This document shows, piece by piece, positions 36,951 through 53,068 of a stretch of DNA of 64,000 nt (position 1 is its first letter; the number at the start of each line of letters is the position of its first letter). The translations under genes were made by a program, and so were the position numbers. Source of the DNA: a virus; the IMG/VR virus record IMGVR_UViG_3300032397_000002, positions 1,579-65,578 of that record; one strand, 5' to 3'. The notes below the pieces were generated by a model that worked only from the letters and a program-made list of their open reading frames with translations, did not search any database and was not told the origin of the DNA.

Positions 36951-37940
36951 ATGGACGCCTTCCTCAACGCAACGCTGAAGATCCTCGCCTTCGGGGACAA
37001 AAGCTTCAACAGTAACCCACGTTTGCGCTACGTGGACTGGAACCGTGACGCCAGCGGCATTCAGGTCCGTGACCCCAAGGCTGAGGCTCACACTATCGAC
37101 CCCGGCGCCACCAAGCTCATCTTTGATGGGACCAGGTCTACGAGCATCACCAGCGCCATCTTCGCGGTAAGCCTCTCCGCTCTCGACCCCAGCAGGTACC
37201 GCATCACCTGGACTGGAGGTAGCAATCCCGGGTTCCGTACCGACCGGTCGCTGACCTTGTCTGGCATCGCTGTCACCTTTTTGGTGCTGGCCAACAACAC
37301 GGCCAATCTCAGTGTCCCCACCCTGGCTGCATTCGATTTCACTGCAGTCCAGCCCGGCGATACCATTCTCATCCCTGGCACCGCTACTGGTGACACGGCA
37401 GGCCCCGTCTCACCTCTGAACAGCGGCTACTGGCAGGTCCTCGCGGTCCTGGACTCCAAGAACCTGAGCCTCTCCCGTTTTGTGGGTTCGGGCTTTGAGG
37501 CCACCAACGAGACGGTCACTCTGAGTTCCAACAGCCAGCTCCAGGCCTTCAGTACCGCAGGTGTTCAGGTCGGAGACAAGCTCGACATCAGCGCTGGGTT
37601 CGCCATTTCGACCCGCAAGACCTTTGATGTGGTCGCCGTCACAAGTTCCTTTGTCGAGGTCATCAGCACCACGGCACTGCCCCCCGAGACCGGCATCACC
37701 CCGGGTACCCAGGGCATGATTTTCTACACCGACGCCAAGAGCTTCCTCTACATCGAAGCCGACCAGGAAGCCGCACTCCGCCTGAATGGGTCTACCGACA
37801 ACAGCCAGCGCCTTTCCCCAATCGAAGCCGGCAACCCCGACCGTCCAGGGCCCTACCTCAAGAGGGGCCCGGCGTGGTCCCTGTCCATCGTCAATCGTTC
37901 CCCGGTGACCTTGAACGTGGTTGTCATCCACGCCGAATAA
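36951..37940 (+). CDS. Putative virion structural protein (beta-rich)
   Basis: Thr/Ser/Gly-rich; lies between TerL and portal. Confidence 0.6.
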   Translation: MDAFLNATLKILAFGDKSFNSNPRLRYVDWNRDASGIQVRDPKAEAHTIDPGATKLIFDGTRSTSITSAIFAVSLSALDPSRYRITWTGGSNPGFRTDRSLTLSGIAVTFLVLANNTANLSVPTLAAFDFTAVQPGDTILIPGTATGDTAGPVSPLNSGYWQVLAVLDSKNLSLSRFVGSGFEATNETVTLSSNSQLQAFSTAGVQVGDKLDISAGFAISTRKTFDVVAVTSSFVEVISTTALPPETGITPGTQGMIFYTDAKSFLYIEADQEAALRLNGSTDNSQRLSPIEAGNPDRPGPYLKRGPAWSLSIVNRSPVTLNVVVIHAE

Positions 37941-37949
37941 GGTGTCCAA

Positions 37950-40118
37950 ATGGCCAAGAAACGAAACAGCATCGAAACTGAATTGAGCCCACTGGCGAAG
38001 TCTCTCATTGAGAGCATCGTTGGTCCACGGCCAGCAGCCGCCTCGAAGGCCGGTGGCAAGATTTCCATGCACCTGACGGACCCCTTCGGCACCTCGCCCT
38101 TGACCAAGGAGCAGGTCGACGCTGAGGACAAGCGCATGGCGGGCATGAGCCCCCTTGTGAAGTCCGTGATGAATCTCCTGAACGGACCTGGTGACACCAT
38201 CGAGCGCCTGGCGTTCGACACAGACCCGGCACTCAACAACACCTACCAGGCCCTCTACAAGACCAAGCTTCGTCTCTTGCCAGACGAGGTTCTGAAGCGC
38301 ATCGGCATCCAGGACGACCTTGTCGCTGCCATCTGCAATGCCCGCTCCAACCAGCTCAGCAGCTTCGGACGACCACAGCCAGACCGCTTCAGCACCGGCT
38401 TCAAGATTGAGCCAGAGCCAGGTCTGCTTGAGAAGCTCGACGACAAGGCCAAGAAGGACCTTCAGGACCGTATCAGCAAGGCTGAGCTGAAGATTCTCAG
38501 CTGTGGCGAGACCAAGGGCTGGAAGGACACCGAAGCTCTCAGTTTTGGTCAGTTCATGTACATGTGCACCCGCAATGCCTGCCTCTTTGGCCGGATCGCG
38601 GTTGAGGCCATCAACGTGGATGGCATGGACGGCAAGAAGCGCTTTCACAGCTTTCGACCCATCGATGCTGGCACCATCTACCGCGCAGCTCCACAGAAGG
38701 AAGCTGGCGACGCGGTGCGGAAGCAGGCCAGGAAGCTCCTGGAACAAATCAAGAACAAGGACCTGGAGCCCGAGCGCTTCCAGGACGACGAATACGCCTG
38801 GGTGCAGGTCATCAGCGGTCGCCCCGTGCAGGCCTTCACGGCTGAAGAGTGCCTGGTCCACAACTTCTACCCCGTGACCGACGTGGAGTTGGACGGGTAC
38901 CCCCTGACGCCTCTCGATACCATCATCACGGCAGTCACCACGCACATCAACATCGGGAACCACAACAAGCTCTACTTCCAATCTGGTCGAGCTGCCCGTG
39001 GCATGATTGTCATCAAGTCGGACGACGCTGATGATGGTGTCATCAAGCACATCCGCCAGCAGTTCCAGGCCTCCATCAACAGTGTGGGCAATGCCTGGCG
39101 CATGCCTATCTTCGGTGTCGGCACGGACGACGACATCGGCTGGTACCCCATCGACAACAGCAGCCGCGACATGGAGTTCCAGTACCTGAGCGACACCAAT
39201 GCACGTGTCATTCTCTCCGGTTTCCAGATGAGCCCGGAAGAGCTGCCCGGATACGCCCACCTGTCGCGTGGTACCAACAACCAGGCCCTCAGCGAGTCGA
39301 ACAACGAGTACAAACTCGAAGCTCACCGAGATGTCGGCATTCGACCCCTTCTGGCCCAGTTCCAGAACTTCGTCAACTCGAAGATTCTGCCCCTCATCGA
39401 TGAGGAGCTTTCCAAGACCTGCAGCCTCAAATTCGTGGGCTTGGACGTGGAAACGGCAGAGAAGGAATCGACCCGCCTCCAGCAGGACATGGCAGTCCAC
39501 ATGTCCATGGACGAAGTCCTCGACAAGGTCGAGAAGAAGCCTGTTGGCAAGGAGTGGGGCGGTCAGTTCCTCCTCAACCCCCAGTGGCAGGCTGTGCTCG
39601 ACAAGTACGTGCCCCAGGGCGCCATCATGGAGCATTTCTTCGGTATGAAGGGTGCCTCCAAGGACCCCCGCTACGACTTCCTCAACAACCCGAACTACTT
39701 CACCCAGATGCAGCTCCTCCAGGCCGAGCAACAGGCTCAGCAGGCAGCACAACAGCCACAACCTCCCCCAGGGGGCGGTGGTGATTCTGGTGGTGGGCAG
39801 CCAGGCGGAGACCAGGGTGACCAGCAGGACCAGGGTGGGGACCAACAGCAACAGCCAGACCAGCAGGGTGGGGACCAGCCCCAAGAAGCAACCCCAGACC
39901 AGGCACCCCAGGACTTGACGCGCAGCCTTGACCAACTCAGCGGTCTCCTCAGCAAGTCTGAGGCCCAGATGCCCACCAGCCGACGCCGGCTTCTGGCTCA
40001 GCAGCGTATGTTCGTCAAGAAGGCCCTCCAGGCTTTCGAGGCGGAGAGCCGAGAGGCCATGAAGGAGATTCTCGACGTCGCCGAGAAGCATCAGCCCCCG
40101 GCCAAGAAGAAGGGGTAA
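37950..40118 (+). CDS. Portal protein with Gln/Gly/Pro-rich C-terminal extension
   Basis: FRPID..TI, GYPLTPL, NAWRMP, RDMEFQ, G.RPLL; position after TerL. Confidence 0.88.
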   Translation: MAKKRNSIETELSPLAKSLIESIVGPRPAAASKAGGKISMHLTDPFGTSPLTKEQVDAEDKRMAGMSPLVKSVMNLLNGPGDTIERLAFDTDPALNNTYQALYKTKLRLLPDEVLKRIGIQDDLVAAICNARSNQLSSFGRPQPDRFSTGFKIEPEPGLLEKLDDKAKKDLQDRISKAELKILSCGETKGWKDTEALSFGQFMYMCTRNACLFGRIAVEAINVDGMDGKKRFHSFRPIDAGTIYRAAPQKEAGDAVRKQARKLLEQIKNKDLEPERFQDDEYAWVQVISGRPVQAFTAEECLVHNFYPVTDVELDGYPLTPLDTIITAVTTHINIGNHNKLYFQSGRAARGMIVIKSDDADDGVIKHIRQQFQASINSVGNAWRMPIFGVGTDDDIGWYPIDNSSRDMEFQYLSDTNARVILSGFQMSPEELPGYAHLSRGTNNQALSESNNEYKLEAHRDVGIRPLLAQFQNFVNSKILPLIDEELSKTCSLKFVGLDVETAEKESTRLQQDMAVHMSMDEVLDKVEKKPVGKEWGGQFLLNPQWQAVLDKYVPQGAIMEHFFGMKGASKDPRYDFLNNPNYFTQMQLLQAEQQAQQAAQQPQPPPGGGGDSGGGQPGGDQGDQQDQGGDQQQQPDQQGGDQPQEATPDQAPQDLTRSLDQLSGLLSKSEAQMPTSRRRLLAQQRMFVKKALQAFEAESREAMKEILDVAEKHQPPAKKKG

Positions 40119-40121
40119 CCC

Positions 40122-40886
40122 ATGAAGCCACGTCTGGGGCCTGCGGCCGTCAAGCTGATAGAGGGCGCGGTCGAGAAGCTCTTCGAGAAGATTCGCAACC
40201 ACACCCTTGGGGACAAGCACCCCACTGGCAAGCGCCTCTACATCGCCTACCGCCCCGACCTGACCCTCAAGGGCATCTTCGACCTGGCTGCAGCCGAGGA
40301 AGGTGTGCGTCCAGACCAAGACGTCCTCAAGACGCTCTTGAAGATTTCCAACTCCTACATCGATGCCACCAAGGAACGTGCCAAGGCTAAAGTGGTTCAG
40401 TCGGTCCAGGCGTTCCTCCAGGAGGCCGGCAACAAGGGTGTCAAGACCAACATCGAAACGGTGCTCGGCGGGAAGCTCTATGAAGTCATGGGTGACGCCA
40501 CCAGAGACCTCAAGCGCATCTTCGAGACCGAGTCAACGGTGGTCCGCAACACCAGCATCATGGACGGCATCGTACGCAGCAATGCGGCTGCAGGTATCGA
40601 TGACCCCACCGTCTTCTTTGTCACGGTACGCGATGATGTCCGGTGTCCAGAATGCACCAGGTTGCACATGTTGGAAGACCGCATCACTCCCAGGTGTTGG
40701 AAGCTCAGTGAGCTGGGCTCGGGATACCACAAGAGGGGCGATCCAACCCCGAAGGTGGGCGGTCTACATCCACACTGCCGCTGTGTTCTGACGACCTTGA
40801 TGCCGGGTTACGGTTTCAATGCCGCCGGCCGTGTCCAGTACAAGAGCCCGAAGTATGACGAACTCGCTACCCAGCGAGGAGTGTAA
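40122..40886 (+). CDS. Mu gpF-like head morphogenesis protein
   Basis: DDVRCPEC...HPHCRC. Confidence 0.8.
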   Translation: MKPRLGPAAVKLIEGAVEKLFEKIRNHTLGDKHPTGKRLYIAYRPDLTLKGIFDLAAAEEGVRPDQDVLKTLLKISNSYIDATKERAKAKVVQSVQAFLQEAGNKGVKTNIETVLGGKLYEVMGDATRDLKRIFETESTVVRNTSIMDGIVRSNAAAGIDDPTVFFVTVRDDVRCPECTRLHMLEDRITPRCWKLSELGSGYHKRGDPTPKVGGLHPHCRCVLTTLMPGYGFNAAGRVQYKSPKYDELATQRGV

Positions 40887-41103
40887 AGAGCGGCTCATCG
40901 TCGGTGATGGGCTCTGATGACTCCATCTCAATCAGCGACCCCATCACGGTCGGAATGTTGTCCACGATGGCCGATGAGCGCTCGATGATTTGCCGGTAGC
41001 GCCGAAGGATTCGAATCTCATCGATGAGGGCCTGATTCTGCACACGCAGGCCCTTGTTCTCCAGCTTCAACACTTCGATGTCGTCCATGCCGTTGTTATC
41101 CAT
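40867..41103 (-). CDS. Hypothetical protein
   Basis: AGGAG SD before MDNNG. Confidence 0.55.
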   Translation of the reverse strand: MDNNGMDDIEVLKLENKGLRVQNQALIDEIRILRRYRQIIERSSAIVDNIPTVMGSLIEMESSEPITDDEPLFTLLAG

Positions 41104-41299
41104 TGTCTTTCTCCTTGAACTTCGTGTCGAATTCAGTCTCTTCGCGAACGTACCAGGGGTTGTGGCCCGGGTTCTTGGTGTAGGGGGTGTAGAGCACCAT
41201 CTGCTCTCCATCCTGGGCATTCGTAGCATTGATGACGCCGCGATGCAAGACCAGATACTCGTTTCCTGTCTTGAGGTGGATGAAGACCTTTGGTATCAT
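41096..41299 (-). CDS. DUF1653-like protein
   Basis: HLKTGNEY.V...AT...MVLY...WYVR...EF. Confidence 0.7.
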   Translation of the reverse strand: MIPKVFIHLKTGNEYLVLHRGVINATNAQDGEQMVLYTPYTKNPGHNPWYVREETEFDTKFKEKDNG

Positions 41300-41667
41300 T
41301 GCTGAGTCTCCTCGGCACAGTCGTCGCAGACCCAGTCGTTCCCGTTCCAGAACAGGCCGTGGGTTTCAGTCCGCAGAGCTGGGACCACGTCACACCGCTC
41401 GCACTTGTCGGGAGGGTTGGCCATCCGCACGCGGATCTCGTCCATGATTTTCTCGATGTCGACAGCCAACTTCTTCTCTTTCTTGCAGAGGTCACATGGC
41501 TGTTTCGAGAAATCGAGTCCGTGCTTGCTGGCAGGACAGAGACCATTCCATACGCCCTCCAGGTCTTCTTGGGTGGGCTTCCTCAACGCAGCCTTGGCTG
41601 CCCGGCTGTCCATCTTCCGGCCCTTCGAACCCCATTCCTTGCTCAGCTTCTTGTAGTCGTCTTTCAT
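41296..41667 (-). CDS. Hypothetical Cys-rich protein
   Basis: CxxC pairs; coupled ORF. Confidence 0.6.
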   Translation of the reverse strand: MKDDYKKLSKEWGSKGRKMDSRAAKAALRKPTQEDLEGVWNGLCPASKHGLDFSKQPCDLCKKEKKLAVDIEKIMDEIRVRMANPPDKCERCDVVPALRTETHGLFWNGNDWVCDDCAEETQQ

Positions 41668-41849
41668 GGCCGCCCCTTGGGTGCCCAGAGGATGTTGCGA
41701 AACCGCTCAAGCACGAGAGTTCTCTCAGAGGGGTATCTGGCCGCCAGCACCCGTTCGGCGTGAATTCGGCGCATGTTCTTTGACCTTCCGTTCTTGCCAG
41801 CCTGCACGTAGGTGACCAGGCCGGTCGTTCCGAGGTCGTTCAGGTTCAC
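41664..41849 (-). CDS. Hypothetical protein
   Basis: GTGA-coupled with GGAGG SD. Confidence 0.45.
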   Translation of the reverse strand: MNLNDLGTTGLVTYVQAGKNGRSKNMRRIHAERVLAARYPSERTLVLERFRNILWAPKGRP

Positions 41850-42187
41850 GGCCGGGCCTCCGCACGCATCGAACGCCACTTGGTGCTGAACAAGAAGGCC
41901 TTGTCGGCGGTGGGAGGCACCATGTCGACCAAGTTCTGGGGGCAGTCGAAGTAGTACGGGCACTCCGACTCAGCCATGCCCTTGACGTAGTAGCGACCGT
42001 TCTCCTTCTGAATCAGGTCGAAGAAGATGGCCCGCAGGCCGGTGGAGGGGTTCTCCATGACCATCCAGAGGCCCGAGCGGGTGCTCTTGTGGGCGATGAC
42101 CACGAGGCCGTCGAAACGACCCGGGCGAAGCTGCTCCTTCACGACATCCGACTTCTTCTTCCAAGCATCGCTTCCGTCCCAGCCCAT
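41846..42187 (-). CDS. DUF6927-like protein
   Basis: MGW...YYVKGMAESECPYYFDCP. Confidence 0.65.
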   Translation of the reverse strand: MGWDGSDAWKKKSDVVKEQLRPGRFDGLVVIAHKSTRSGLWMVMENPSTGLRAIFFDLIQKENGRYYVKGMAESECPYYFDCPQNLVDMVPPTADKAFLFSTKWRSMRAEARP

Positions 42188-42217
42188 TGTGTGCTCCTTT
42201 TGGTGAACCGCCACCCA

Positions 42218-42246
42218 CTTCTATCAGACCTTCTTCGTACCGTCAA
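42218..42246 (-). promoter_or_regulatory. Early sigma70-type promoter
   Basis: TTGACG-N17-TAGAAG. Confidence 0.6.
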
Positions 42247-42343
42247 GGGCCTCGCAGAATGGTGGGTGTAGCTGCCCTCTTTATGGGAGTTTGGGTTCGT
42301 CAACCCAAGCAACTATCCACCACCCTGCGAGGCCCTTGATGGT

Positions 42344-42553
42344 TCAGTCAGCCATCATTGCACGCTTCTCAGCAGCCCGGCCGTCGTCATCCGCCCCGCC
42401 GCCCATGAAGTCCTCGTCACCGCAGTTGGGGCAGCAAGTCACGTCCGTCTCAGCGTACTCCTCGCCGGTCTCATCCCAGCGGCGGGTGAACTCGACTTCG
42501 ACATCCTCGGAGCACTCGTAGCAGGTGACGAATTCGGAGTAGGTAGGGTTCAT
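42344..42553 (-). CDS. Small acidic Zn-ribbon protein
   Basis: CYEC...CPNCG. Confidence 0.65.
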   Translation of the reverse strand: MNPTYSEFVTCYECSEDVEVEFTRRWDETGEEYAETDVTCCPNCGDEDFMGGGADDDGRAAEKRAMMAD

Positions 42554-42560
42554 GGATGTC

Positions 42561-42589
42561 TTTCTACACGGTAGAAGTCGGGGTGTCAA
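42561..42589 (-). promoter_or_regulatory. Early sigma70-type promoter
   Basis: TTGACA-N17-TAGAAA, 7 nt before ATG. Confidence 0.7.
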
Positions 42590-42794
42590 GCACCAAAGTG
42601 AGGTGCTCCACCTGGCACACGGCCTTCCCGAAAGTGCCGTTGGCTCGGGCGAACGACACATCCGCCACCAGCACCCTGCGATTGCCGAAGGTGTAGCGCT
42701 TCGTCGAGTACCGAATCCGTCGGACCTTGCCAGCCCACTGGCCGAACATCCCACGGTGGAACATCACCTTGTCGCCGACTTTGATGGTGGTCAT
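42564..42794 (-). CDS. Small SH3/KOW-like hypothetical protein
   Basis: IKVGDKV...GKV. Confidence 0.6.
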   Translation of the reverse strand: MTTIKVGDKVMFHRGMFGQWAGKVRRIRYSTKRYTFGNRRVLVADVSFARANGTFGKAVCQVEHLTLVLDTPTSTV

Positions 42795-42801
42795 GGGCAG
42801 C

Positions 42802-42830
42802 GTTCTACACGAGCCTGGACCGTGTGTCAA
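42802..42830 (-). promoter_or_regulatory. Early sigma70-type promoter
   Basis: TTGACA-N17-TAGAAC, 7 nt before ATG. Confidence 0.7.
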
Positions 42831-43059
42831 AGGGAAAGTACGTGCTCAGCTCCAAACGTGCCCCCAGCGCAATCTAAGCAACTACGCCGTTGTCTACAAC
42901 CACACGCCCTGCCTCGCTTCGCTGTCTTCGGCTGGGTGCGTACCCACCCACCTGTGAGCAGACCATCTTGCTCGGCCCAGGACGCCCCTTTATTCCGGGA
43001 AGCACCCCGGTTCTCATCGTGACGGTTGGTCCGCACTATCCCCTGCCAAGGGGAACGTG

Positions 43060-43136
43060 CGGGGCAGGTGGGACTCGAACCCACGTCTTCCGGCAACTGC
43101 GAACCGCCGGCGCTCTTCCTCTTGAGCTACCACCCC
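43060..43136 (-). tRNA. tRNA-like RNA with non-canonical anticodon arm (central triplet CGC, identity undetermined)
   Basis: GGGGTGG/CTGCCCC acceptor, GCTC/GAGC D stem, CCGGC-11 nt-GCCGG, GTGGG-TTCGAGT-CCCAC. Confidence 0.75.
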
Positions 43137-43140
43137 TTGC

Positions 43141-43422
43141 TCACTCTTGTCTGAGCCACCAGAATCGGTCTTTTGCCTCCTGTTCCTGCTTCGCGGCCCT
43201 GTCCAGGACGTCAGCCCCATCGCAAGAGAGGCAGACCAGGAAGTTTCCATTGTTGGACGGGCTGTCTTTGAAGTTGGCAAAGACCCATCGCCACACATCC
43301 CCGACCCTGAAGCGCCAGCCGCACAGCCGGCATCTGAAACAGGAGCCGTCTCGTTTCCCACACCAAGGCGCACGGATTTCCTTCTCCGTCGCTTCCCTTT
43401 GCTTTCCGTCGGTGAAACTCAC
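43141..43422 (-). CDS. Hypothetical Zn-finger protein
   Basis: CRLC...CLSCD. Confidence 0.6.
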   Translation of the reverse strand: MSFTDGKQREATEKEIRAPWCGKRDGSCFRCRLCGWRFRVGDVWRWVFANFKDSPSNNGNFLVCLSCDGADVLDRAAKQEQEAKDRFWWLRQE

Positions 43423-43688
43423 AACGTCTCCGGCATCAGGCTGTGCCAGATCTGTGCCACTTCCCCCAGCACCTTCTCCAGGGCCTCAATCCGCGCCTCA
43501 GCTTCTCGCCGGGCCTGGGGGCCGACATCAGGGCCCTTGATGTAGTAGTCGCGGTCGTGAGGGAAAGACTCGCGGAGAGCTACGATGGCCGTCTGGACTG
43601 CCATGTAGGCGTTGTGGTGCTGCTCGAAGAGCTGCTTGCGGCCCGTACCGTTCATGTAGACCGAGGGGAGAACGATTTTGGTCTTCAC
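43419..43688 (-). CDS. Hypothetical early protein
   Basis: MNGT...PHDRDYY; coupled ORF. Confidence 0.65.
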   Translation of the reverse strand: MKTKIVLPSVYMNGTGRKQLFEQHHNAYMAVQTAIVALRESFPHDRDYYIKGPDVGPQARREAEARIEALEKVLGEVAQIWHSLMPETL

Positions 43689-43975
43689 TTGTTCACCATC
43701 CCGTAGACCACCTCGGAGAGGTTGTCGCAGTACACGTCAGAGGCCTCTTCGACGACCGTGAAGCCCATGGTCTTGCGGCTCACCTTGATGTGGCGCACGG
43801 TGTAGGTGTCGCTGGGGTCCAGGGTGACGGTGATGCGGTGGCTGTTCCCGTTGAGGACCACGAAGCTCAGCTCGTTGCCGTCGCCCAGGGGGCTGCGGGC
43901 ACCACAGGCCATCTTCGTGCCCACGGAGATTTGCGACCAGATGACATCGGCGACTGAGGGGTTGGTTGGGTTCAT
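43685..43975 (-). CDS. Hypothetical early protein
   Basis: ITVTLDPSDTYTV...DVYCDNL; directly after a promoter. Confidence 0.7.
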   Translation of the reverse strand: MNPTNPSVADVIWSQISVGTKMACGARSPLGDGNELSFVVLNGNSHRITVTLDPSDTYTVRHIKVSRKTMGFTVVEEASDVYCDNLSEVVYGMVNK

Positions 43976-43981
43976 GGAGGT

Positions 43982-44010
43982 GTTCTACATGAGCAGAAGC
44001 CGGCTGTCAA
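43982..44010 (-). promoter_or_regulatory. Early sigma70-type promoter
   Basis: TTGACA-N17-TAGAAC, 6 nt before ATG. Confidence 0.7.
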
Positions 44011-44231
44011 GCCTTCTTCGACATACGAAGAAGAATTTCTGTACGCAACATGCTCCATCGAGTGGCGAGGTACACCACGTCGTTCTTTGCGAGATTGTTC
44101 TTGCGGTCGTACGTGGCACCGTCGTAGGCCCTGAGGAGGTTCTCATTGTCGTACAGCTCGTTCTCACCAGCCCGGCCGGCTTCCAGTTCAGAGTTCAGGT
44201 TCATCATCATGAAGTCAAGCTTGGTCATCAC
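44007..44231 (-). CDS. Hypothetical early protein
   Basis: GAGGAG SD. Confidence 0.55.
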   Translation of the reverse strand: MMTKLDFMMMNLNSELEAGRAGENELYDNENLLRAYDGATYDRKNNLAKNDVVYLATRWSMLRTEILLRMSKKA

Positions 44232-44467
44232 GTCTCCTCGGGGTACAGAACGGTGTATTCCAACATGTCAGCGCCCAGCCGGAAGCCTGGCAGGTCGCAG
44301 TAGCGGCTGAAGTGGGTCTCATCGGCACAGCTGACGATGTTGCCCGGCGCGACGTAGTCGTGGGCAGCTTGGACCCAGGGGAGGTCCTCGTCGGAGAGAC
44401 CACTGACGTCTCCGTTGATGAGGGCGGAGGCAAGGAAGGCAGGGAAGGTGACGGTTTCGACTCGCAT
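44228..44467 (-). CDS. Hypothetical early protein
   Basis: ASALINGD.SGL; promoter TAGACA-N17-TAGAAA at 44474-44502. Confidence 0.65.
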   Translation of the reverse strand: MRVETVTFPAFLASALINGDVSGLSDEDLPWVQAAHDYVAPGNIVSCADETHFSRYCDLPGFRLGADMLEYTVLYPEET

Positions 44468-44546
44468 GGTGTCTTTCTATCAGGTCGGTGGGCCCTTGTC
44501 TAGTGACCTAGACAGATTCCGAAGAGGTGGGCTACCCGGTCGACAA

Positions 44547-44783
44547 TCAGGACCGCGACCGGTCCAAGCCCAGCACCCCACAACAGGAGGCGTGAAAGGT
44601 GGGTTTTGAGGCTGGTCGGGCGTTTCGCTCCTGCCACTCCGAGTCCGACAGGCTCTTGTGACACTGTCGGCACAGGTCGTGTTGCTTGTCCCTCTTGTAC
44701 TTCTTCCCGTCCGTTGAAAACAGGTTCGGCCTCTTTCCGCACAGTTGACATAGTTTTCGGTCCTTTTTCTGGGAGAACTTCAT
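44547..44783 (-). CDS. Hypothetical Zn-finger protein
   Basis: CQLC...CRQC; GGAGG SD. Confidence 0.5.
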   Translation of the reverse strand: MKFSQKKDRKLCQLCGKRPNLFSTDGKKYKRDKQHDLCRQCHKSLSDSEWQERNARPASKPTFHASCCGVLGLDRSRS

Positions 44784-44878
44784 TGTGGTGAGCCTCCATG
44801 GAAGGCACCTTAACCAGAACCAGGTCCGAGAGTCAAGAGGCAATCTTCCTTGCATGGGTCACCAGGAGAACCGGTAAC

Positions 44879-47800
44879 ATGTCCATGATAATCGATGGCG
44901 TATTCGCCTCTGAGGCGATTGATTCCAGTGGGGAAATCCTGGACGTAGAGGGCTGCGACATCAGTGACATGGAGCAGGGTTCTGGAGTCCTCAACTGGGA
45001 GCACCGAGGCGACGACGCCGCCGGCGCAAGTGCCAACGACATCATCGGCAAGGTGGTCTTCTGCAAGAAGATTTTTGGGCCCGAGGACTGTACCGACAGC
45101 CGCCAGCTGGAGTACTGGCAGAAGATACAACTCCCAATGATTTACGGTATTTGCAGGCTCTTTGATGGTTCGGGGCACCCAGGCGCCATCGCAGCTGCAG
45201 CCATGATTCGCGACTACCAGAAGAATGGCGAGCCCTTGCTCATCCGGTACAGCATCGAGGGCACCACCCTGGAGAAGGAGAAGGGCGGCAACCGGCTCCT
45301 GCGCTCCATTGCTCGTCGTGTCGCGGCTACCATTAAGCCCTGCAACAAGTCTTGTCACTCTGGCGTCATCGCTGACCCCAACGACCCCACGGTCAAGAAG
45401 CAAGAGCACGCCCACCCGAACTTCACCCCGCTGGGTGGCTCGATGGAGTGGGAAGGCAAGCCGGAGATCGACTCGCCTGAGATTCGCAAGGCTCTGGAGG
45501 CCGGCAACTACAATTCCGCCCCTGGCACCCTTACCGGTGGCTCAGCTCTGCAGCGGGAAGATGCTGGCCTGCGCAACCGCGTCAAGGCGGCTGTGCGGGA
45601 CTGGGACCGCAAGACCCCGTTCAGGAAGTTCCTCAAGCACCGCCTGCCAGAGGCCAGTGATGGCTTCATTGACCGTTTCGCCGACCTGGTCCACGACTAT
45701 ACCGTCAAGAAGGCTCTGAAGGAGACCGTCAGAGAATACTTGGTGAAGAAAATCGTCGAGAAAGCCAAGGCGGCACCAAAAGCCAAGGCGTCAAAGCCGG
45801 CACCAGAGCCCAAGGCAGCAAAGGCCCCCAAGGCAGCAAAGCCGGCACCGGCACCAGCACCTGAGCCGGAATCCGATGTTGAAGTCGAGTCCGATGGCCC
45901 TCTGACTATCAAGGGCAAGCCTGTCCAGCTGAACCCCGGCATCGAGAAGCCCCACTTCGACGAGAACACCGGCGTACTCCACACTCCCAGGGGCAGCTTC
46001 CCTCTGTACATCCCCAGCCGGGACAGAGACACCGCAGATGCAGGCCAGAAGTTCGCCAACATCATGGCTGACCCGAAGGTCGAGAAGTTCCATGACTACG
46101 CCATGGAGAACTGGGCCAAGGTTCACCAGCATCTGAAGGCCGGCACACTGCCTCCAGAGGTCGTGATGCACGGAGTGCTCTTCAGCCAGTTGAGCCCGAA
46201 CACTCCGGTGCCCATGCAGGAGATGATGTACGCCCACCTCGTGGACAGCATGAAGGCCACCGGTGCAGACCCACGACAGCCCGGCTTCAGCGACAAGCTC
46301 AAGCAGGACTGGTTCAATCGTGACCAGCCCCAGAAGTTCCCTGACCACAGCCCGGAACACTGGGCCCGCTTGGGTGACCAGCTTCGTAACAAAATCGACT
46401 CGAAGCTCACTGGCCGCAAGGCTGGCGAGATCGGCGGCTTCATGCTCGCCAACAACAAGATGAAGAACATGGACCAGTACCATTCTCTTCACAACTCCCT
46501 GACGGAGCTGATTGGTCGCCACCGTGCTGATGCTCGCTCTGGTGTTGAAGAACTGATGCACCACAAGACCCAGGCTGGCAATTGGGAGAACAAGCGCCGT
46601 CTCCGAACAGAGAAAGGCCAGACTGACATTGGACCTTACACGGCAGGCCCCAGTGTTCCCGGCCTTGCAACCAAGACGGCCCGCTACACCTACGGCATGT
46701 TGGGCGGTGGCAATGTCACCGTGCCAGATACCCACTTCAGCCGCTACCTCTTTGGTCTTGACAAGCGCCAGGATGGGGCCACCATCCGACACCTCCGCAA
46801 TGAGGTGCTCTGGAACCCCAACAACGCCCACATCATGGGTGCCATCGACCGGTACTACGGCCAGCACCACGATGCCGTCAAGCACATGCTCCAGCACCCT
46901 CGGTGGGGGCACCTCTTCAAGGACAACCCCGAAGACGCCATCTTCCCAGCTTTCTGGAAGAACTGGGTCGGCATTGTCCCCCATGAGGCAAGCCGAGGCA
47001 TGAAGACTGGTGGCTTCAACGAGGCCACCGACCACCGTCCCTTCTGGGACGCTGTGGGTCCGTACATGAACAAGTCCGAGACTGGGATTGACACCAACCT
47101 GGCCGCTCAGACCGCGAAAACCCATGCGCAATGGGTTGAAAAATACGGCGAGATGCCGGCCCTCCTGATGTACTTCCACTACCTGGTGCCTCAGCTCTTG
47201 GCGTCCAGCGAGAAGGCAGCGAAGGCGCAACAGATTGTCAAGTTCGAGGAAGCGGCCATCGAGCTGTCGAAGGCAGACAGCATCACCCCGAGAGATCTCC
47301 AAGGGAATCGAATCCCAGCTTCGCAGGCTCCAGCGGCAGCTCCACGCCCCGAGGTGGCCTTTGACCCGAAGGTGGCTGAAGCCGCAAGACAGAGGGAAAA
47401 TCCGAAGTACAGGAATCTCGACGAAATCCCCGAGACGGTGCAGTTTGGCGGCAAGACCGTCAAGCCTGGCCACGGCTACATCCCTGGCGGGAAGCAGATG
47501 GCCTTCTTTGGCGCCACCCCTGAGCATCTCATCGGCGTTCCCCGCAACAAGGCTCAGTCCTGGACCACCGAGGACCTGATGAAGATCCCCAGGGCCAGCG
47601 GCGCGAGCGTCCAGCGGTACCCCGAGGAACTGGCGGCTCCCAGCATTGTCAGCCACGCTGTCCATGGCGTGCCTGAGTACACCCACCACGACGACGTTCG
47701 CAACCTGGTCGACGGGCTCGACTTCGATGCCGAGAAACAGGCGAGCTTCTCTGGCATCAACCAGGCGCAGAGCTTCTGGACCGTGAACAAGGGCCACAAG

Positions 47801-48571
47801 GTCTACGTCAAGGCCAACCACGACGAGAGCGACTTCGACGAGCCCAGCCGAGAAGGTCTGTACCACAACCTAGCCAGAGATTTCTTCGGCATGGGCAAGT
47901 ACGTGACCCCGACGGGAGTCGTGCTGCACCCTCGCACTGGCCAGAAGCATGCGGTCATCGAGAATGTTGCTGGTGGTGAGCACCTGGATACCGAGAATCC
48001 CGAGCACAAGCAGACCATGCAAAACCTCATGGCCAGTGGCGAGCTGCACAAGATGACCATGATGAACGTCATCGCAGCCAACCATGACCGGCACCGTGGC
48101 AACTTCATGATGACTCCTGGGGGCCTGAAACTCATCGACCATGGCTACGCCTTCGCTGACAAGGACCTCCATGCGACCCCTACCCCGGACTACATCAAGT
48201 ACCACGACCTGATGACGGCTTCTCCGAATGACCCGAGGGACCTGGCCAGCATCGAGGCAAAGCTCCGCTTCCACCCTGAAGCAGCGAAGTGGCTCCAGGC
48301 GCTGGACCCCCAGCAGCTTGACATGCAGATGCGGCGCCACGGTGTGCCAGAGAGGTACGTTGATGAGGCCCGCCGCCGGCTTGTCGCCCTCCAGCACGAG
48401 AGCCGCGACCCCAAGGCAACCATCGTTTCGATGATGCGGGCTCCCTTCCACACCGCGTGGGTGCCACCGGAAGAGCGAAAAGGCCCCAAGCCCTCCAGCT
48501 CTGACTCCCAGTCCGATGTCTCGCCTCCACGTGGCGCCCCTGGACAAAAACCTCAAGGTAAGGTAGGGTAA
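44879..48571 (+). CDS. Prohead protease polyprotein: protease, HhH-GPD-like domain and HipA/PI3K-like kinase
   Basis: IDGVFASEAIDSSGE, NWEH, YSIEG, PCN (protease); LSPNTP, GLATKTARY, VPDTHFSR; YVK, DRHRGN, IDHG; AGGAG SD. Confidence 0.8.
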   Translation: MSMIIDGVFASEAIDSSGEILDVEGCDISDMEQGSGVLNWEHRGDDAAGASANDIIGKVVFCKKIFGPEDCTDSRQLEYWQKIQLPMIYGICRLFDGSGHPGAIAAAAMIRDYQKNGEPLLIRYSIEGTTLEKEKGGNRLLRSIARRVAATIKPCNKSCHSGVIADPNDPTVKKQEHAHPNFTPLGGSMEWEGKPEIDSPEIRKALEAGNYNSAPGTLTGGSALQREDAGLRNRVKAAVRDWDRKTPFRKFLKHRLPEASDGFIDRFADLVHDYTVKKALKETVREYLVKKIVEKAKAAPKAKASKPAPEPKAAKAPKAAKPAPAPAPEPESDVEVESDGPLTIKGKPVQLNPGIEKPHFDENTGVLHTPRGSFPLYIPSRDRDTADAGQKFANIMADPKVEKFHDYAMENWAKVHQHLKAGTLPPEVVMHGVLFSQLSPNTPVPMQEMMYAHLVDSMKATGADPRQPGFSDKLKQDWFNRDQPQKFPDHSPEHWARLGDQLRNKIDSKLTGRKAGEIGGFMLANNKMKNMDQYHSLHNSLTELIGRHRADARSGVEELMHHKTQAGNWENKRRLRTEKGQTDIGPYTAGPSVPGLATKTARYTYGMLGGGNVTVPDTHFSRYLFGLDKRQDGATIRHLRNEVLWNPNNAHIMGAIDRYYGQHHDAVKHMLQHPRWGHLFKDNPEDAIFPAFWKNWVGIVPHEASRGMKTGGFNEATDHRPFWDAVGPYMNKSETGIDTNLAAQTAKTHAQWVEKYGEMPALLMYFHYLVPQLLASSEKAAKAQQIVKFEEAAIELSKADSITPRDLQGNRIPASQAPAAAPRPEVAFDPKVAEAARQRENPKYRNLDEIPETVQFGGKTVKPGHGYIPGGKQMAFFGATPEHLIGVPRNKAQSWTTEDLMKIPRASGASVQRYPEELAAPSIVSHAVHGVPEYTHHDDVRNLVDGLDFDAEKQASFSGINQAQSFWTVNKGHKVYVKANHDESDFDEPSREGLYHNLARDFFGMGKYVTPTGVVLHPRTGQKHAVIENVAGGEHLDTENPEHKQTMQNLMASGELHKMTMMNVIAANHDRHRGNFMMTPGGLKLIDHGYAFADKDLHATPTPDYIKYHDLMTASPNDPRDLASIEAKLRFHPEAAKWLQALDPQQLDMQMRRHGVPERYVDEARRRLVALQHESRDPKATIVSMMRAPFHTAWVPPEERKGPKPSSSDSQSDVSPPRGAPGQKPQGKVG

Positions 48572-48575
48572 GCTC

Positions 48576-49805
48576 ATGGAAGGCCTTCAAAACCTGTATC
48601 TTCTCTGTCAGATTCACCCCCATGGGGATGAGCTGCACACGACCGTCATTGGCAAGTTCTACCTCGACAGCGAGCACTTCGAAGTCCTTGAAGACCACGT
48701 TGGCTGGTTGGGTGACCTGCAGAAGCAAAGCCCAGCAGAGGCCTCTCGCGTCATTTGGCGCCTGGCCAATAGCATGTACTACAAGGTCGTCAACATGGAG
48801 GACATGCGCCAGGGGAAGCATCCTGAGCTTATCAACGAGGAGCCCATACCCCCAACGGCCGGTCCAGAATCCCGTTTTGAGTACCACCGGGTAGGAATGC
48901 CTGAAGCGCAGCTCGTGGAGTTCCACGAAGGCAAGGCGTACCTCGATGGCCACCCGCTGTCACCCCAGGACCTACAGCATATGCTTGACAACGTACAAGC
49001 TGGTTCTGCTACTCTCGGATACAAGCAGGCAGAAGATGACCTGCAGAAGTCCGAGGAGTTCTATATGACGTTGGCCAAGGTTGAACCACATCTCGACGCA
49101 GCCCTTCAGGGTCTCCGAGCAGCAGTCAAGGCGGGGCATGTACACCCTGACGTGCTCAAGCACCTCACCGGGGAGATTTTCACTGACTCGATGGTGAAGG
49201 GCATGGGCAACAAGAAGGCCTACATGGACTTTCTCAGCCGGCCCAAGCAGGGCGTCCACATCCGCATGGACGGGAACGATTTCGGTGGCATCAACAAGGT
49301 CCATGGCTTCGAGACTGGCAACAAGGCCATCACCGCCCTGGGCGGTGCAGTGCGCGAGGCCATGGATGAGGCTGTTGGTAGAGCCAACGGCAAGGCGTTT
49401 CGTATCGGTGGAGACGAGTTCCATGCCTTCGTGCCATCTCACGAGCATGCAGCTCAATTTGCCAGGGCTCTTCGTCAGAAGCTGGAGGCTATCCCTGCTG
49501 TCGGTGGTACCCACAACCTGAGCATGAGCCTTGGTTTCGGGCACACACCAGACCACGCAGAGCTGGCCATGATAAATGCCAAGGGTGCCAAGAAAGCCAG
49601 TGGTGCCAAGCCTGGTCAGGCCAAGACCCACGCAGCCTCACAGGTGCCTGGGTACGAGGGACTCATTCCCACCGGTGCAGATCAACTGCCCCTGAAGCAG
49701 ATTCCTGAGGCACCGGCACCCGTCGCTCCGGCACCAATCAAGACACCAGAGCAGCCCTCAACGCCGACGTCGATTCACCCGCCGGCGCTTGGGAAGCCTA
49801 CCTAA
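48576..49805 (+). CDS. GGDEF-domain (diguanylate cyclase family) protein
   Basis: TDSMVKGMGN, MDGNDFGGINKVHG..TGN, FRIGGDEF, SMSLG. Confidence 0.88.
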   Translation: MEGLQNLYLLCQIHPHGDELHTTVIGKFYLDSEHFEVLEDHVGWLGDLQKQSPAEASRVIWRLANSMYYKVVNMEDMRQGKHPELINEEPIPPTAGPESRFEYHRVGMPEAQLVEFHEGKAYLDGHPLSPQDLQHMLDNVQAGSATLGYKQAEDDLQKSEEFYMTLAKVEPHLDAALQGLRAAVKAGHVHPDVLKHLTGEIFTDSMVKGMGNKKAYMDFLSRPKQGVHIRMDGNDFGGINKVHGFETGNKAITALGGAVREAMDEAVGRANGKAFRIGGDEFHAFVPSHEHAAQFARALRQKLEAIPAVGGTHNLSMSLGFGHTPDHAELAMINAKGAKKASGAKPGQAKTHAASQVPGYEGLIPTGADQLPLKQIPEAPAPVAPAPIKTPEQPSTPTSIHPPALGKPT

Positions 49806-50689: not shown

Positions 50690-51646
50690 ATGACGATGAA
50701 AATCAAAGAATCAGAGCTGAAGGCCCTACTGGAGGAAGTCGCAAACGACCTCTCCAAGGCATTCGAGTCCGAGAAGGACAAGCTCGTGAAGGCAGAAGAG
50801 GTCGAAAAATCGGCCCTCGCCAAGGACGACGCACCAGGTGAGGAATCCCCTGGTGAGCCGCCTGCGGCTGATGCCTCCGCTCCCCCGGACGCTTCTGCTG
50901 CCCCCTCCCCCGAGGAAGGCAGTGAGAGTGCTCCTCCCGCTTCACCTGACGCTTCGGCTTCCCCCGACGGCGCTCCCTCACCGGACGCTGCGATGGATCC
51001 AGCCGCAGATGCGTCGGCAGCTCTGACCCCTGAGGTTCTGCAGGCAGAGTACTCGAAGTTGGCTCCTGAGGAGCTGGACATGCACATCAAGGCAGCACTG
51101 GCGGCGAAGGCTGCTGTTGCTGGCGCACCGGATGCTTCGGCTGGCGCACCTCCGATGGCTCCACCGGATGCTTCGGCACCCCCGATGGCACCCCCGGCGG
51201 GCCCTTCTGCACCTCCCGCACCTGGCGCACCCCCGTTGGACCCGATGGCCCTCAAGTCTGAGGTGCCGGCTGGAAATCTGAAGGCGAATGGTGGGCAAAT
51301 CAAGGGCGCATCGCTCGGCAAGTCCGAAGGCGAGAAGCGCCATGACGATGAGATTGAAGCCCTCAAGGCTTTGGTCAAGTCGCAGGCCGAAGACACCGAA
51401 AACCTGGCGAAGGTTCTCAAGGCAGTCCTTGAGCAGCCCCTCCGCAAGGCCGTGACGAGCGTCTCGCATCTCCCGAAGGTGGAGACCGAGAAGGCGCCTC
51501 TCACGAAGGCGAGCATCAATGCACGCCTGAAGGAACTGTCGCAGAAGCCGGACTTGAAGAAGTCCGACAGGCAGTTGATCAATGACTTCTACGATGGGCG
51601 GGTCAGGGCTGATGCTCTTGCTCCTCTCTTCGAGGACTACAAGTAA
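50690..51646 (+). CDS. Putative capsid scaffolding protein
   Basis: Pro/Ala/Asp-rich with helical segments, immediately before MCP. Confidence 0.65.
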   Translation: MTMKIKESELKALLEEVANDLSKAFESEKDKLVKAEEVEKSALAKDDAPGEESPGEPPAADASAPPDASAAPSPEEGSESAPPASPDASASPDGAPSPDAAMDPAADASAALTPEVLQAEYSKLAPEELDMHIKAALAAKAAVAGAPDASAGAPPMAPPDASAPPMAPPAGPSAPPAPGAPPLDPMALKSEVPAGNLKANGGQIKGASLGKSEGEKRHDDEIEALKALVKSQAEDTENLAKVLKAVLEQPLRKAVTSVSHLPKVETEKAPLTKASINARLKELSQKPDLKKSDRQLINDFYDGRVRADALAPLFEDYK

Positions 51647-51676: not shown

Positions 51677-53068
51677 ATGGCTACTGAAGTGACGCAAGCA
51701 CTGCTCAAGGCTCTCGAAGCCGGCAACTACAACCAGGCTCCCAGCACTCTCGTGCAGGGTGGCTCCCTCCAGATTGAGGATCTCTCGCCGGTCATGCACA
51801 ACGTGACCTTCGACGATTCGCACATCAAGCTCCAGAAGATGGTCAAGGTGGACAGCTGCAAGTCGACCCTGGCGCAGTTCAACCGTCAGCTCAGCTACGG
51901 TGTCTTCGGCGGGTCGGCTCAGCTCGAAGGCGCAGTTGGCCAGGAAGAGACGAGCGACTTCGTGCGTATCGTGGTTGCGATGGCGTACTACTCGCACATT
52001 CGCCGGGTTTCAATCGTGGCGAACATGGTCGACACTGCCGATGGCGTGAAGGCTGAAGAGCGGGCAGCGTCTGACGCGGCCAAGAAGCTCGCAGCTGACA
52101 TCGAGTTCGATCTGTTCCGTGGCAAGGCTGACTTCTCGAACGGTGGTCTGTTCGACGGCAACCAGCTCGCCATCCCGGGTCTCCCCTCGATGCTCGGCCT
52201 CGATGCCCAGATTCGTCAGTCGGACTCGGAGCGCAATGCTACCGACCTGATGTTCGGCGAGTACGGCAGCGACGACACCGTGGTCATCAGCGGTGGCGGC
52301 ACCCTCAGCCAGGACATGATTGAGGACGCCAGCGTGCGTTCGGCCATGAACCTCGGCTCGGCGGACAAGCTCCTGGTGGACCCCAAGGTCCTCTCGGCGT
52401 ACAACAAGATCAGCTTCGGCAAGGAGCGCATCGTGCTGGCAGGTTCGGCACAGGATGCAACCGGCGCCGAGCTTCGCAAGCAGTGGGTCAGCAACGGTGT
52501 TGTCGGTCTTGAGGCCTCGCGCTTCCTGTCTGGCAAGACCCGCCCCTCGGCTGCACGCAGCAATGGTCCCTCTGCACCGACCATCGCGAGCACCACCCCG
52601 TCAGGCGCAAGCACCAGTCTCGCACTGGGCACCTACGTGTGGTACGTGACCTCTGTCAACGAGCTGGGTGAGTCGCCGAAGTCGGCTGCTGCATCGCAGG
52701 CTTGCTCGGCTGGCGACCAGGTCACCGTGGCCATCACGCCCCCGGGCACTGGCACTGTGCGCTTCTTCAATGTGTACCGCTCGGCAGCGGGTGGGTCGGC
52801 AGCATCGGCTCGCTTCATCGGCCGCGTGTCCTACACCGGCGCAAGCCCCACGAACTTCGTGGACCTGAACAACAAGCGGCCTGGTTTCGTGACCGGCTTC
52901 CTGGTTCAGGGCGACACCATGGCCATGAAGGAGCTGTCTCCCTACAGCCGCCTCAAGCTGGCTGTGTCGGACCTCAGCATTCCTGAGGCGCACTTCCGAT
53001 TCTGCACCCTGGCTGTTCACGAGCCCCGCAAGAACGTGCTCATCGACAACCTTGTCGGCAGCTTCTAA
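51677..53068 (+). CDS. Major capsid protein (SPO1/Twort-like, with FN3-like insert)
   Basis: KALEAG...GSLQIEDL, IEFDLFRG, Y.WYVTSVNELGES, NVYR; strong SD and terminator. Confidence 0.88.
   Translation: MATEVTQALLKALEAGNYNQAPSTLVQGGSLQIEDLSPVMHNVTFDDSHIKLQKMVKVDSCKSTLAQFNRQLSYGVFGGSAQLEGAVGQEETSDFVRIVVAMAYYSHIRRVSIVANMVDTADGVKAEERAASDAAKKLAADIEFDLFRGKADFSNGGLFDGNQLAIPGLPSMLGLDAQIRQSDSERNATDLMFGEYGSDDTVVISGGGTLSQDMIEDASVRSAMNLGSADKLLVDPKVLSAYNKISFGKERIVLAGSAQDATGAELRKQWVSNGVVGLEASRFLSGKTRPSAARSNGPSAPTIASTTPSGASTSLALGTYVWYVTSVNELGESPKSAAASQACSAGDQVTVAITPPGTGTVRFFNVYRSAAGGSAASARFIGRVSYTGASPTNFVDLNNKRPGFVTGFLVQGDTMAMKELSPYSRLKLAVSDLSIPEAHFRFCTLAVHEPRKNVLIDNLVGSF

Follow-up and report, generated by a model that had tools for sequence, protein, structure and literature searches.

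Polyvalent proteins are a known class in phages and conjugative elements, in which anchoring to the virion falls to MuF and portal domains and processing to a zincin-like metallopeptidase (MPTase) (Iyer, Burroughs, Anand, de Souza and Aravind, 2017, PMC5512222). Here we describe a gene at positions 44879-48571 of a 64,000-nucleotide stretch (the window) of the viral record IMGVR_UViG_3300032397_000002, together with the GGDEF protein gene that follows it. The source record is a 100%-complete IMG/VR virus of 168,622 bp, and the window covers its bases 1579-65578. The gene encodes a polyvalent polyprotein that starts with a head maturation protease and continues with a glycosylase-like module in the middle and a kinase-like module at the end. 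Like the described polyvalent proteins, it combines several unrelated enzyme domains in one polypeptide, lies among virion genes and has modules that are shuffled among its relatives; a repertoire of GGDEF, kinase, GNAT, ART-PolyVal and ParB-like domains is shared between the two, as is the predicted delivery with the DNA. Unlike them, its N-terminal module is a capsid maturation serine protease, and the joints between its modules carry the capsid and scaffold motif of that protease. Its kinase is PI4K/CtkA/HipA-like, whereas the published account describes a truncated Ser/Thr kinase, and its HhH-GPD module is absent from that account, in which the word 'glycosylase' occurs 0 times.

A comparable cargo system is known from phage T4, in which the prohead core takes up the internal proteins IPI-III and Alt, which are trimmed by the protease gp21, kept in the head and ejected, with gp21 also processing itself (PMC9026906). 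As in this capsid targeting sequence (CTS)/gp21 system, the cargo of the polyprotein is bounded by a motif that is shared with the capsid protein and the scaffold, the evidence here being only statistical and positional. However, each T4 cargo protein has a gene of its own and a short N-terminal targeting peptide, and the motif is L/I-x-E (cut after the Glu), while the cargo here forms one chain with the protease and carries [LIVM]-x-K-[SA] (predicted cut after the Lys); moreover, gp21 is only a distant relative of the SPO1-type protease. Judged from its sequence, the polyprotein would work like the T4 cargo system without being a member of it. P2 gpO, Mu gpI/Z and lambda C/Nu3 are further prohead proteases whose C-terminal extension goes into the prohead and is lost by self-cleavage; there the extension is the scaffold and is degraded. 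In contrast, the virus studied here encodes its scaffold separately (50690-51646), and folded enzymes make up the extension. The SPO1 gp3.2 and Herelleviridae-type proteases (phrog_1028) have a homologous catalytic domain, an L-x-K-S/A-LEAG copy of the capsid arm and a short helical tail, and SPO1 has the same gene order of portal, protease, scaffold and capsid. Yet with their 256-297 amino acids these proteases stop some 60-90 residues past the arm, whereas the polyprotein runs on for about 940 residues more. Our literature search found no paper on protease-anchored polyvalent proteins or on such a fusion.

The capsid protein of the virus shows 60.5% identity to its counterpart in Myxococcus phage Mx1, and about 25% to the capsid proteins of SPO1-like and some Gram-negative myoviruses; the source is an uncultured Mx1-like myovirus. 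Mx1, a cultured phage of Myxococcus xanthus, carries a homologous polyprotein gene whose product shows 40% identity over 94% of the length. The accession of this Mx1 product is WNM70322, and those of its neighbours are WNM70323 and WNM70324. The gene is placed between the portal and MuF-like genes on one side and the scaffold and capsid genes on the other, and this position in the head operon is conserved in Mx1 and four metagenomic relatives. In Mx1 the gene order is the same: a long gene annotated as 'putative prohead protease' is followed by a 150-amino-acid gene and then by a 243-amino-acid 'nucleotide cyclase'.

On the plus strand the frame 44798-48571 is open over 1257 codons without a stop. 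We place the gene at 44879-48571 because AGGAGA stands 9 nt before the ATG at 44879 and because relatives align from residue 28-30; residues of the polyprotein are numbered from an in-frame ATG further upstream, at 44798 (translation P0001), and the gene begins at residue 28. An initial annotation of the window had described, in its head operon, a protease open reading frame (ORF) of about 1230 residues with the protease confined to the N-terminal part, then a Lys/Ala/Pro linker, an HhH-GPD-like domain and a HipA/PI3K-like kinase domain, and a GGDEF gene after a gap of 4 nt. All of these elements were borne out, with the following extents:

44879..48571, plus strand: polyprotein gene, 1230 amino acids; Shine-Dalgarno sequence AGGAGA 9 nt upstream of 44879; gene-caller product P0007
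44879..45490, plus strand: SPO1-type head maturation serine protease domain, residues 28-231 (hhalign; phrog_1028 in relatives)
45491..45565, plus strand: copy of the capsid N-terminal arm, residues 232-256, ALEAGNY...LQRED (tblastn and family profile)
45566..45760, plus strand: conserved helical segment after the arm copy, residues 257-321, with V-K-K-A at 303-306 (conservation in 65 relatives)
45761..45892, plus strand: Lys/Ala/Pro-rich linker, residues 322-365, of varying length among relatives (low-occupancy alignment columns)
45893..47074, plus strand: HhH-GPD DNA-glycosylase-like module, residues 366-759, ending in M-N-K759-S760 (AlphaFold2 model, VIA-align)
47075..47272, plus strand: long helical hairpin, residues 760-825, ending in L-S-K825-A826 at the border of the variable cargo (secondary structure of the model)
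47273..47662, plus strand: N-terminal part of the cargo, residues 826-955, a flexible lead and a small beta-rich domain (model)
47663..48457, plus strand: PI3/PI4-kinase/CtkA/HipA-like kinase domain, residues 956-1220 (PF00454, Foldseek, VIA)
48576..49805, plus strand: GGDEF protein gene, 409 amino acids (PF00990, 33.3 bits)

Relatives were gathered by a word-indexed search (234 relatives) and a survey with hidden Markov models (HMMs) covering 238 collected proteins; conservation counts refer to up to 65 relatives. A profile of the first 235 residues of the family aligns with SPO1 gp3.2 (hhalign 98%, E 1.8e-13, 139 columns, 32% identity) over polyprotein residues of about 30-200, and a phmmer search with SPO1 gp3.2 against all ORFs of the genome returned the polyprotein ORF as its sole match (E 1.4e-6). 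The family phrog_1028, 'head maturation protease', is matched by 23 of 37 relatives (best E 3.3e-11). The putative catalytic His69 (45002-45004) lies in an N-W-E-H motif that aligns with N-F-D-H of SPO1 and is at least 90% conserved in 65 relatives, while the putative catalytic Ser152 (45251-45253), in Y-S-I-E-G aligned with F-S-V-E-G of SPO1, is invariant in them. These alignments identify the N-terminal module, at the level of sequence, as a head maturation serine protease of the SPO1 type. The window's own protease gave no phrog_1028 match at E 0.05, and the polyprotein as a whole matched no Pfam protease family (E<=0.1) and no PHROG protease family. A classification under Peptidase_S78 (PF04586, the HK97 gp4 type) was dropped, a six-frame search of the genome having given no match to PF04586 at E<=1. 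The phrog_1028 and PF04586 HMMs, run on the genome in search of a second protease, gave no match at all and missed even the known copy; that the polyprotein holds the only SPO1-type protease detectable in the genome is based on the family HMM and the SPO1 gp3.2 query.

Directly after the protease the polyprotein resembles the N-terminus of the capsid protein of the same phage (residues 228-256, 62% identity in a tblastn search of P0001 on its own genome), and a family HMM of this arm segment matches the capsid ORF (E 9.2e-8). The arm is also shared by the protease and the capsid protein in SPO1 and in the Bordetella phage PHB04, whose proteases carry the [LIVM]-x-K-[SA] motif before the arm copy. 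We counted sites of this motif in scaffolds, capsid proteins and the polyprotein, with expectations taken from shuffled sequences. The scaffolds of seven phages together hold 49 sites against 6.5 expected, an enrichment of about 7-fold: 9 observed and 1.4 expected in this phage, 11 and 0.9 in SPO1, 5 and 1.0 in Mx1, 7 and 0.7 in PHB04, 3 and 0.6 in AVP, and 6 and 1.2 as well as 8 and 0.7 in the metagenomic relatives L009 and L011, respectively. The capsid protein of the window has a single predicted cut, L-L-K11-A12 (51707-51712), directly before its ALEAG arm; one capsid site each, right before the A-L-E-A-G arm, is the pattern in Mx1, SPO1 and the three Mx1-like phages (this phage, L009 and L011), while the capsid protein of PHB04 has two sites and that of AVP four, one of which precedes the arm. 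As our literature search found no paper in which the cut site of a SPO1-type capsid protein had been measured, we infer the role of the motif as a cut site from this distribution. A T4-like cut site, L-Q-x-E-D with the cut after the Glu (the invariant Glu254), was considered and dropped, the scaffold-enriched motif directly before the arm being [LIVM]-x-K-[SA]; Glu254 may still matter for recognition.

Within the polyprotein the motif marks the borders between modules. At the border of protease and cargo, K231-A232 (I-R-K-A) is kept as [LIVM]-x-K-[SA] in 55 of 65 relatives; K305-A306 (V-K-K-A), in the helical segment, is kept in 28 of 65; K759-S760 (M-N-K-S), which opens a loop with a predicted local distance difference test (pLDDT) score below 50, is kept in 27 of 62; and K825-A826 (L-S-K-A), at the border of glycosylase and kinase, is kept as L-x-K-A/S in 32 of 59, to which near variants may be added. 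The predicted cut sites fall in low-confidence segments of the models, and a fragment starting at A232 would open with the copy of the capsid arm.

The middle module is a sequence family of its own, with 205 representatives among 1.8 billion proteins, nearly all of them inside long proteins, and with about 40 invariant residues. An AlphaFold2 model of residues 366-830 (pLDDT 90.2, predicted template modelling score 0.81) was compared with known structures using the exhaustive aligner VIA-align, which places it closest to the Thermotoga 8-oxoguanine glycosylase Tm1821 Ogg (3n0u_A; Z 14.0, root-mean-square deviation (rmsd) 3.1, 207/209 residues). HhH-GPD enzymes fill 19 of the top 21 rows, with Mag1, QNG1, hOGG1, EndoIII, MagIII, AlkA, ROS1, NTHL1 and MutY at Z 6.8-9.1. 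Foldseek searches of PDB and BFVD returned nothing at E<=0.001 for this model; the best matches were only at E>=0.2, though archaeal Ogg and EndoIII head the list. PF00730 gave no match to the module at E<=10, nor did any Pfam family at E<=0.1 or any PDB sequence profile, and the best ESM Atlas feature (0.78, DUF7178) is a lead only. Two residues of the module, Lys626 (46673-46675) and Asp644 (46727-46729), are invariant and stand 18 residues apart, the spacing found in endonuclease III, in the motif G-L-A-x-K626-T-A-R ... G-G-G-N-V-x-V-P-D644-T-H. An hhalign comparison sets them on G-R-K-T-A-N ... V-D-T-H of Escherichia coli Nth, in an alignment that is not significant alone (probability 4%). 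On the strength of the model, we assign the middle module to the HhH-GPD superfamily at the level of fold only. Because the Lys/Asp pair of the bifunctional glycosylases is invariant, catalysis is favoured over mere binding, and the module is a putative glycosylase-like enzyme acting on DNA.

Many relatives carry inteins in this module, inserted within its invariant S-Q-L-S-P-N-T-P-V-P-M-Q-E motif (PF14890 and Hint matches in P0031, P0048, P0055, P0058, P0074, P0077, P0082, P0119 and P0125). They are about 290-650 residues long, most of them about 300-390; the site corresponds to 46190-46225 of the window, where the copy is free of an intein.

The last module was modelled over residues 826-1220 (pLDDT 90.5). 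All of the 87 Foldseek matches at E<=1e-3 are PI3K-type or small atypical kinases, and VIA aligns the model with PI4KIIalpha (4pla_A; Z 18.3, rmsd 3.1, 237 residues), CtkA (13.9), Fam20 (13.9) and HipT/HipA (11-12; HipT 11.8). PF00454 scores 26.6 bits in hmmscan, where the cut-off is 27.1, and 29.6 bits in a six-frame search, and it is matched by 17 of 37 relatives (best E 2e-8). The catalytic loop Asp1097-Arg-His-x-x-Asn1102 and Asp1114, of the D-x-G metal site, are in place, with D1097, R1098, N1102 and D1114 invariant, and Lys1005 and Glu1019 are at least 90% conserved. As modelled, the module is thus a PI4K/CtkA/HipA-like kinase fold with an intact catalytic loop. The beta-rich domain that precedes it (residues of about 880-940; strands at model residues 56-115, pLDDT >95) lies outside the fold matches. 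An N-terminal adaptor common to the kinase cargo and the GGDEF cargo was ruled out (hhalign probability 1%).

The stop codon of the polyprotein (TAA, 48569-48571) is followed, after 4 nt, by the ATG of the GGDEF protein at 48576. PF00990 matches this protein with 33.3 bits against a cut-off of 23.8 (34.7 bits in another search). The GGDEF palm spans about residues 190-340, and its GGDEF motif is intact (residues 278-282, 49407-49421). The N-terminal domain, residues 1-158, ends at L-Q-K158-S159 (49047-49052), the sole [LIVM]-x-K-[SA] site of the protein, and this border coincides with the gene boundary in Mx1. Residues 26-369 align with the C-terminus of P0096, a fusion of protease, glycosylase and GGDEF (E 3e-55). 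By eye on the family alignment, the guanine-binding Asn is kept and the Asp of the G-D pair reads Asn in the window copy, while Mx1 and most relatives keep the Asp. The I-N-D-x-x-G-H-x-x-G-D stretch at 49296-49340 departs from the consensus in the window copy at three usually conserved positions (D to K, H to F and D to N), the last Asp being kept in Mx1. PADLOC matched neither the polyprotein nor the GGDEF protein.

Among the 238 surveyed proteins, the protease and the middle module occur together in 196, and the middle module occurs alone in 27, some of which are fragments and some genuine long proteins that lack the protease. The C-terminal modules of the relatives include PI3/4K-like kinase, GGDEF, GNAT, SAM lyase/DUF3293, DUF5661, DUF6321, radical SAM, mCpol, ART-PolyVal and ParB_N; the tallies of end modules are those of Pfam, and the kinase HMM of the survey was contaminated by GGDEF rows, so that its kinase counts are upper bounds. 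The metagenomic relatives L013 and L012 have the polyprotein and a separate GGDEF gene, as in the window. In L009 the GGDEF protein is fused in the place of the kinase, and there is no separate GGDEF gene. L011 has a protease-glycosylase protein of 863 amino acids, followed by a protein of 717 and a GGDGF protein of 338 amino acids, and since the motif of the latter reads G-G-D-G-F, this GGDEF-like protein may be inactive. The 717-residue protein (L011:9592-12761) consists of a degenerate second copy of the middle module at its start and a kinase.

These data can be accommodated in a model in which the extension is a processed head cargo. By analogy with other prohead proteases, the protease must enter the prohead; purified virions of Twort-like phages and of Bacillus phages have been found to contain SPO1-type proteases (PMC5618024, PMC3601020); and predicted cut motifs stand at the module borders. 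For these reasons self-processing in the prohead, followed by retention and ejection, would be the most economical model. The polyprotein would enter the prohead core like any prohead protease, perhaps aided by the capsid-arm copy and the helical segment, and after assembly of the shell the protease would cut the scaffold, the capsid protein and itself at [LIVM]-x-K-[SA]. Small fragments would leave the head, while the folded enzymes, of about 45-50 kDa each, would remain inside and be expelled with the DNA at infection, like T4 Alt and the T4 internal proteins. In the host the kinase would phosphorylate proteins, the glycosylase-like enzyme would act on DNA, and the GGDEF protein, loaded as a free-standing member of the cargo set, would make a cyclic (di)nucleotide. 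From the comparisons given above, we regard the processed head cargo as a whole as reasonably probable; the delivery of the modules into the host we hold to be finely balanced.

Several observations weigh against this model. The HhH-GPD-like module is constant across the relatives and is not swapped, and it is also found in the long protease-less proteins P0184, P0191 and P0174; it may be a core or anchoring part, or serve the phage's own DNA, rather than be swappable cargo. L011 encodes the kinase and the GGDEF-like protein in genes of their own, and therefore their covalent attachment to the protease is not required. The strict form of the motif at K759 and K825 is present in only about half of the relatives. 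The motif is short, and its five sites in the polyprotein are within two standard deviations of chance (2.5 +/- 1.6); because the count by itself lacks significance, the case for cut sites in the polyprotein is one of position and conservation. A protease of 135 kDa in tens of copies would occupy much of the head volume, and our literature search found no virion proteome of Mx1. The initial annotation had taken the protease for both the carrier and the release device of host-manipulating enzymes. The border motifs, the cargo swaps and the fusion of GGDEF in some relatives speak for this and the separate kinase and GGDEF genes of L011 and the constant HhH-GPD-like module against it, so that the predicted role is partly supported, by comparison. 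Its suggestion that related proteases might carry swappable C-terminal cargo holds for the end modules and fails for the HhH-GPD-like module.

An alternative that turns on this module is that the extension is packaged but does not consist of host-directed effectors: the HhH-GPD-like module would serve the phage's own DNA or head, where its task might be to bind the packaged DNA or organise it, to keep hold of a DNA end, or to repair or process the genome during entry, and the end modules would be secondary additions. HhH motifs of this superfamily bind the DNA backbone, and almost every relative has the module, whereas the end modules change from one to the next; its many invariant residues, its recurrence in protease-less long proteins and the inteins that many relatives carry in it, as essential conserved proteins do, point the same way. 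However, the invariant Lys/Asp pair argues for catalysis and against mere binding, and the accompanying SAM lyase, ART-PolyVal, mCpol, GGDEF and kinase domains are the company of conflict effectors; on balance, we consider this alternative unlikely. It is more improbable still that the modules stay undelivered and do their work late in the cell that makes the phage, the fusion and the place in the operon giving co-expression only and the modules being cut off in the cytoplasm or lost from proheads. Such a role would fit the late-operon position, the translational coupling across the 4-nt gap and the free kinase and GGDEF genes of some relatives, but it would leave the border cut motif and the capsid-arm copy without a purpose. 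Moreover, known prohead proteases are active inside the assembled prohead, and folded pieces of 45-50 kDa made within the shell could not, to extrapolate from T4, exit through its pores (PMC9026906). That the long ORF is an artefact of assembly or gene calling that joins separate genes can be practically dismissed: the initial annotation had named an assembly artefact as a possible objection, and our check found the same architecture in the isolate Mx1 and in over 190 cluster representatives, which are independent, come from many samples and in several cases sit on contigs of 140-180 kb; to this may be added the 1257 codons without a stop.

Returning to the processed and ejected head cargo, a further-reaching version of it may be put forward tentatively, as something possible rather than probable. 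The capsid maturation protease of Mx1-like phages might be a general loading chassis, in which anything fused behind its own cut motif would be carried into the prohead, released and injected. The constant HhH-GPD glycosylase/lyase would then be injected as well and act on DNA at the start of infection, for example by attacking the host DNA but not that of the phage, or by attaching through a Schiff base to the genome as it enters. If such head-cargo delivery takes place, a single gene would combine address, scissors and payload for protein delivery by a phage, which would explain how large soil phages bring changing counter-defence enzymes, such as a kinase, cyclases, a SAM lyase and an ADP-ribosyltransferase, into the host cell ahead of any gene expression. 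A DNA glycosylase-like enzyme would join the known injected phage proteins, and the rule 'fuse behind L-x-K-A' would be usable for loading foreign proteins into phage heads.

The neighbouring genes of the head operon in the window are as follows, with a 148-amino-acid gene sitting between the GGDEF gene and the scaffold-like gene:

34974-36908: large terminase
37950-40118: portal
40122-40886: MuF-like gene
50690..51646, plus strand: scaffold-like protein, 318 amino acids, with nine [LIVM]-x-K-[SA] sites (1.4 expected from shuffles)
51677..53068, plus strand: major capsid protein, 463 amino acids (phrog_752, E 1.3e-43)

Between the large terminase and the portal lies a conserved gene of 329 amino acids (36951-37940), which is also present in Mx1, L009, L011 and L013 and matches no Pfam or PHROG family. 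The head operon is interrupted between the MuF-like gene and the protease by small, mostly minus-strand genes (40867-44855); a similar gene block is found in Mx1 and L009, and L011 has plus-strand genes and Endonuclease_7 genes at that place. Six [LIVM]-x-K-[SA] sites, grouped toward both ends of the protein, occur in the portal (37950-40118), where 1.5 are expected, and the portal of Mx1 has five against 0.9; judged by these motif counts, the portal may be trimmed as well.

Two further ORFs lie beyond the end of the window. About 1.2 kb past it, a small ORF (G000:C1:66736-67128) partly matches the protease family HMM (E 0.0014, over 44 residues around the Ser motif) without having the His and the Ser; it may be a degenerate protein of the protease fold or a chance match. 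A second polyvalent ORF, 1580 codons long (G000:C1:71059-75801), lies about 5.5 kb past the window end. It contains motifs of Nudix, acetyltransferase and SLT-like type, its C-terminal part is paralogous to the kinase (PF00454, 37.7 bits), and of its four [LIVM]-x-K-[SA] sites two read K-S-E.

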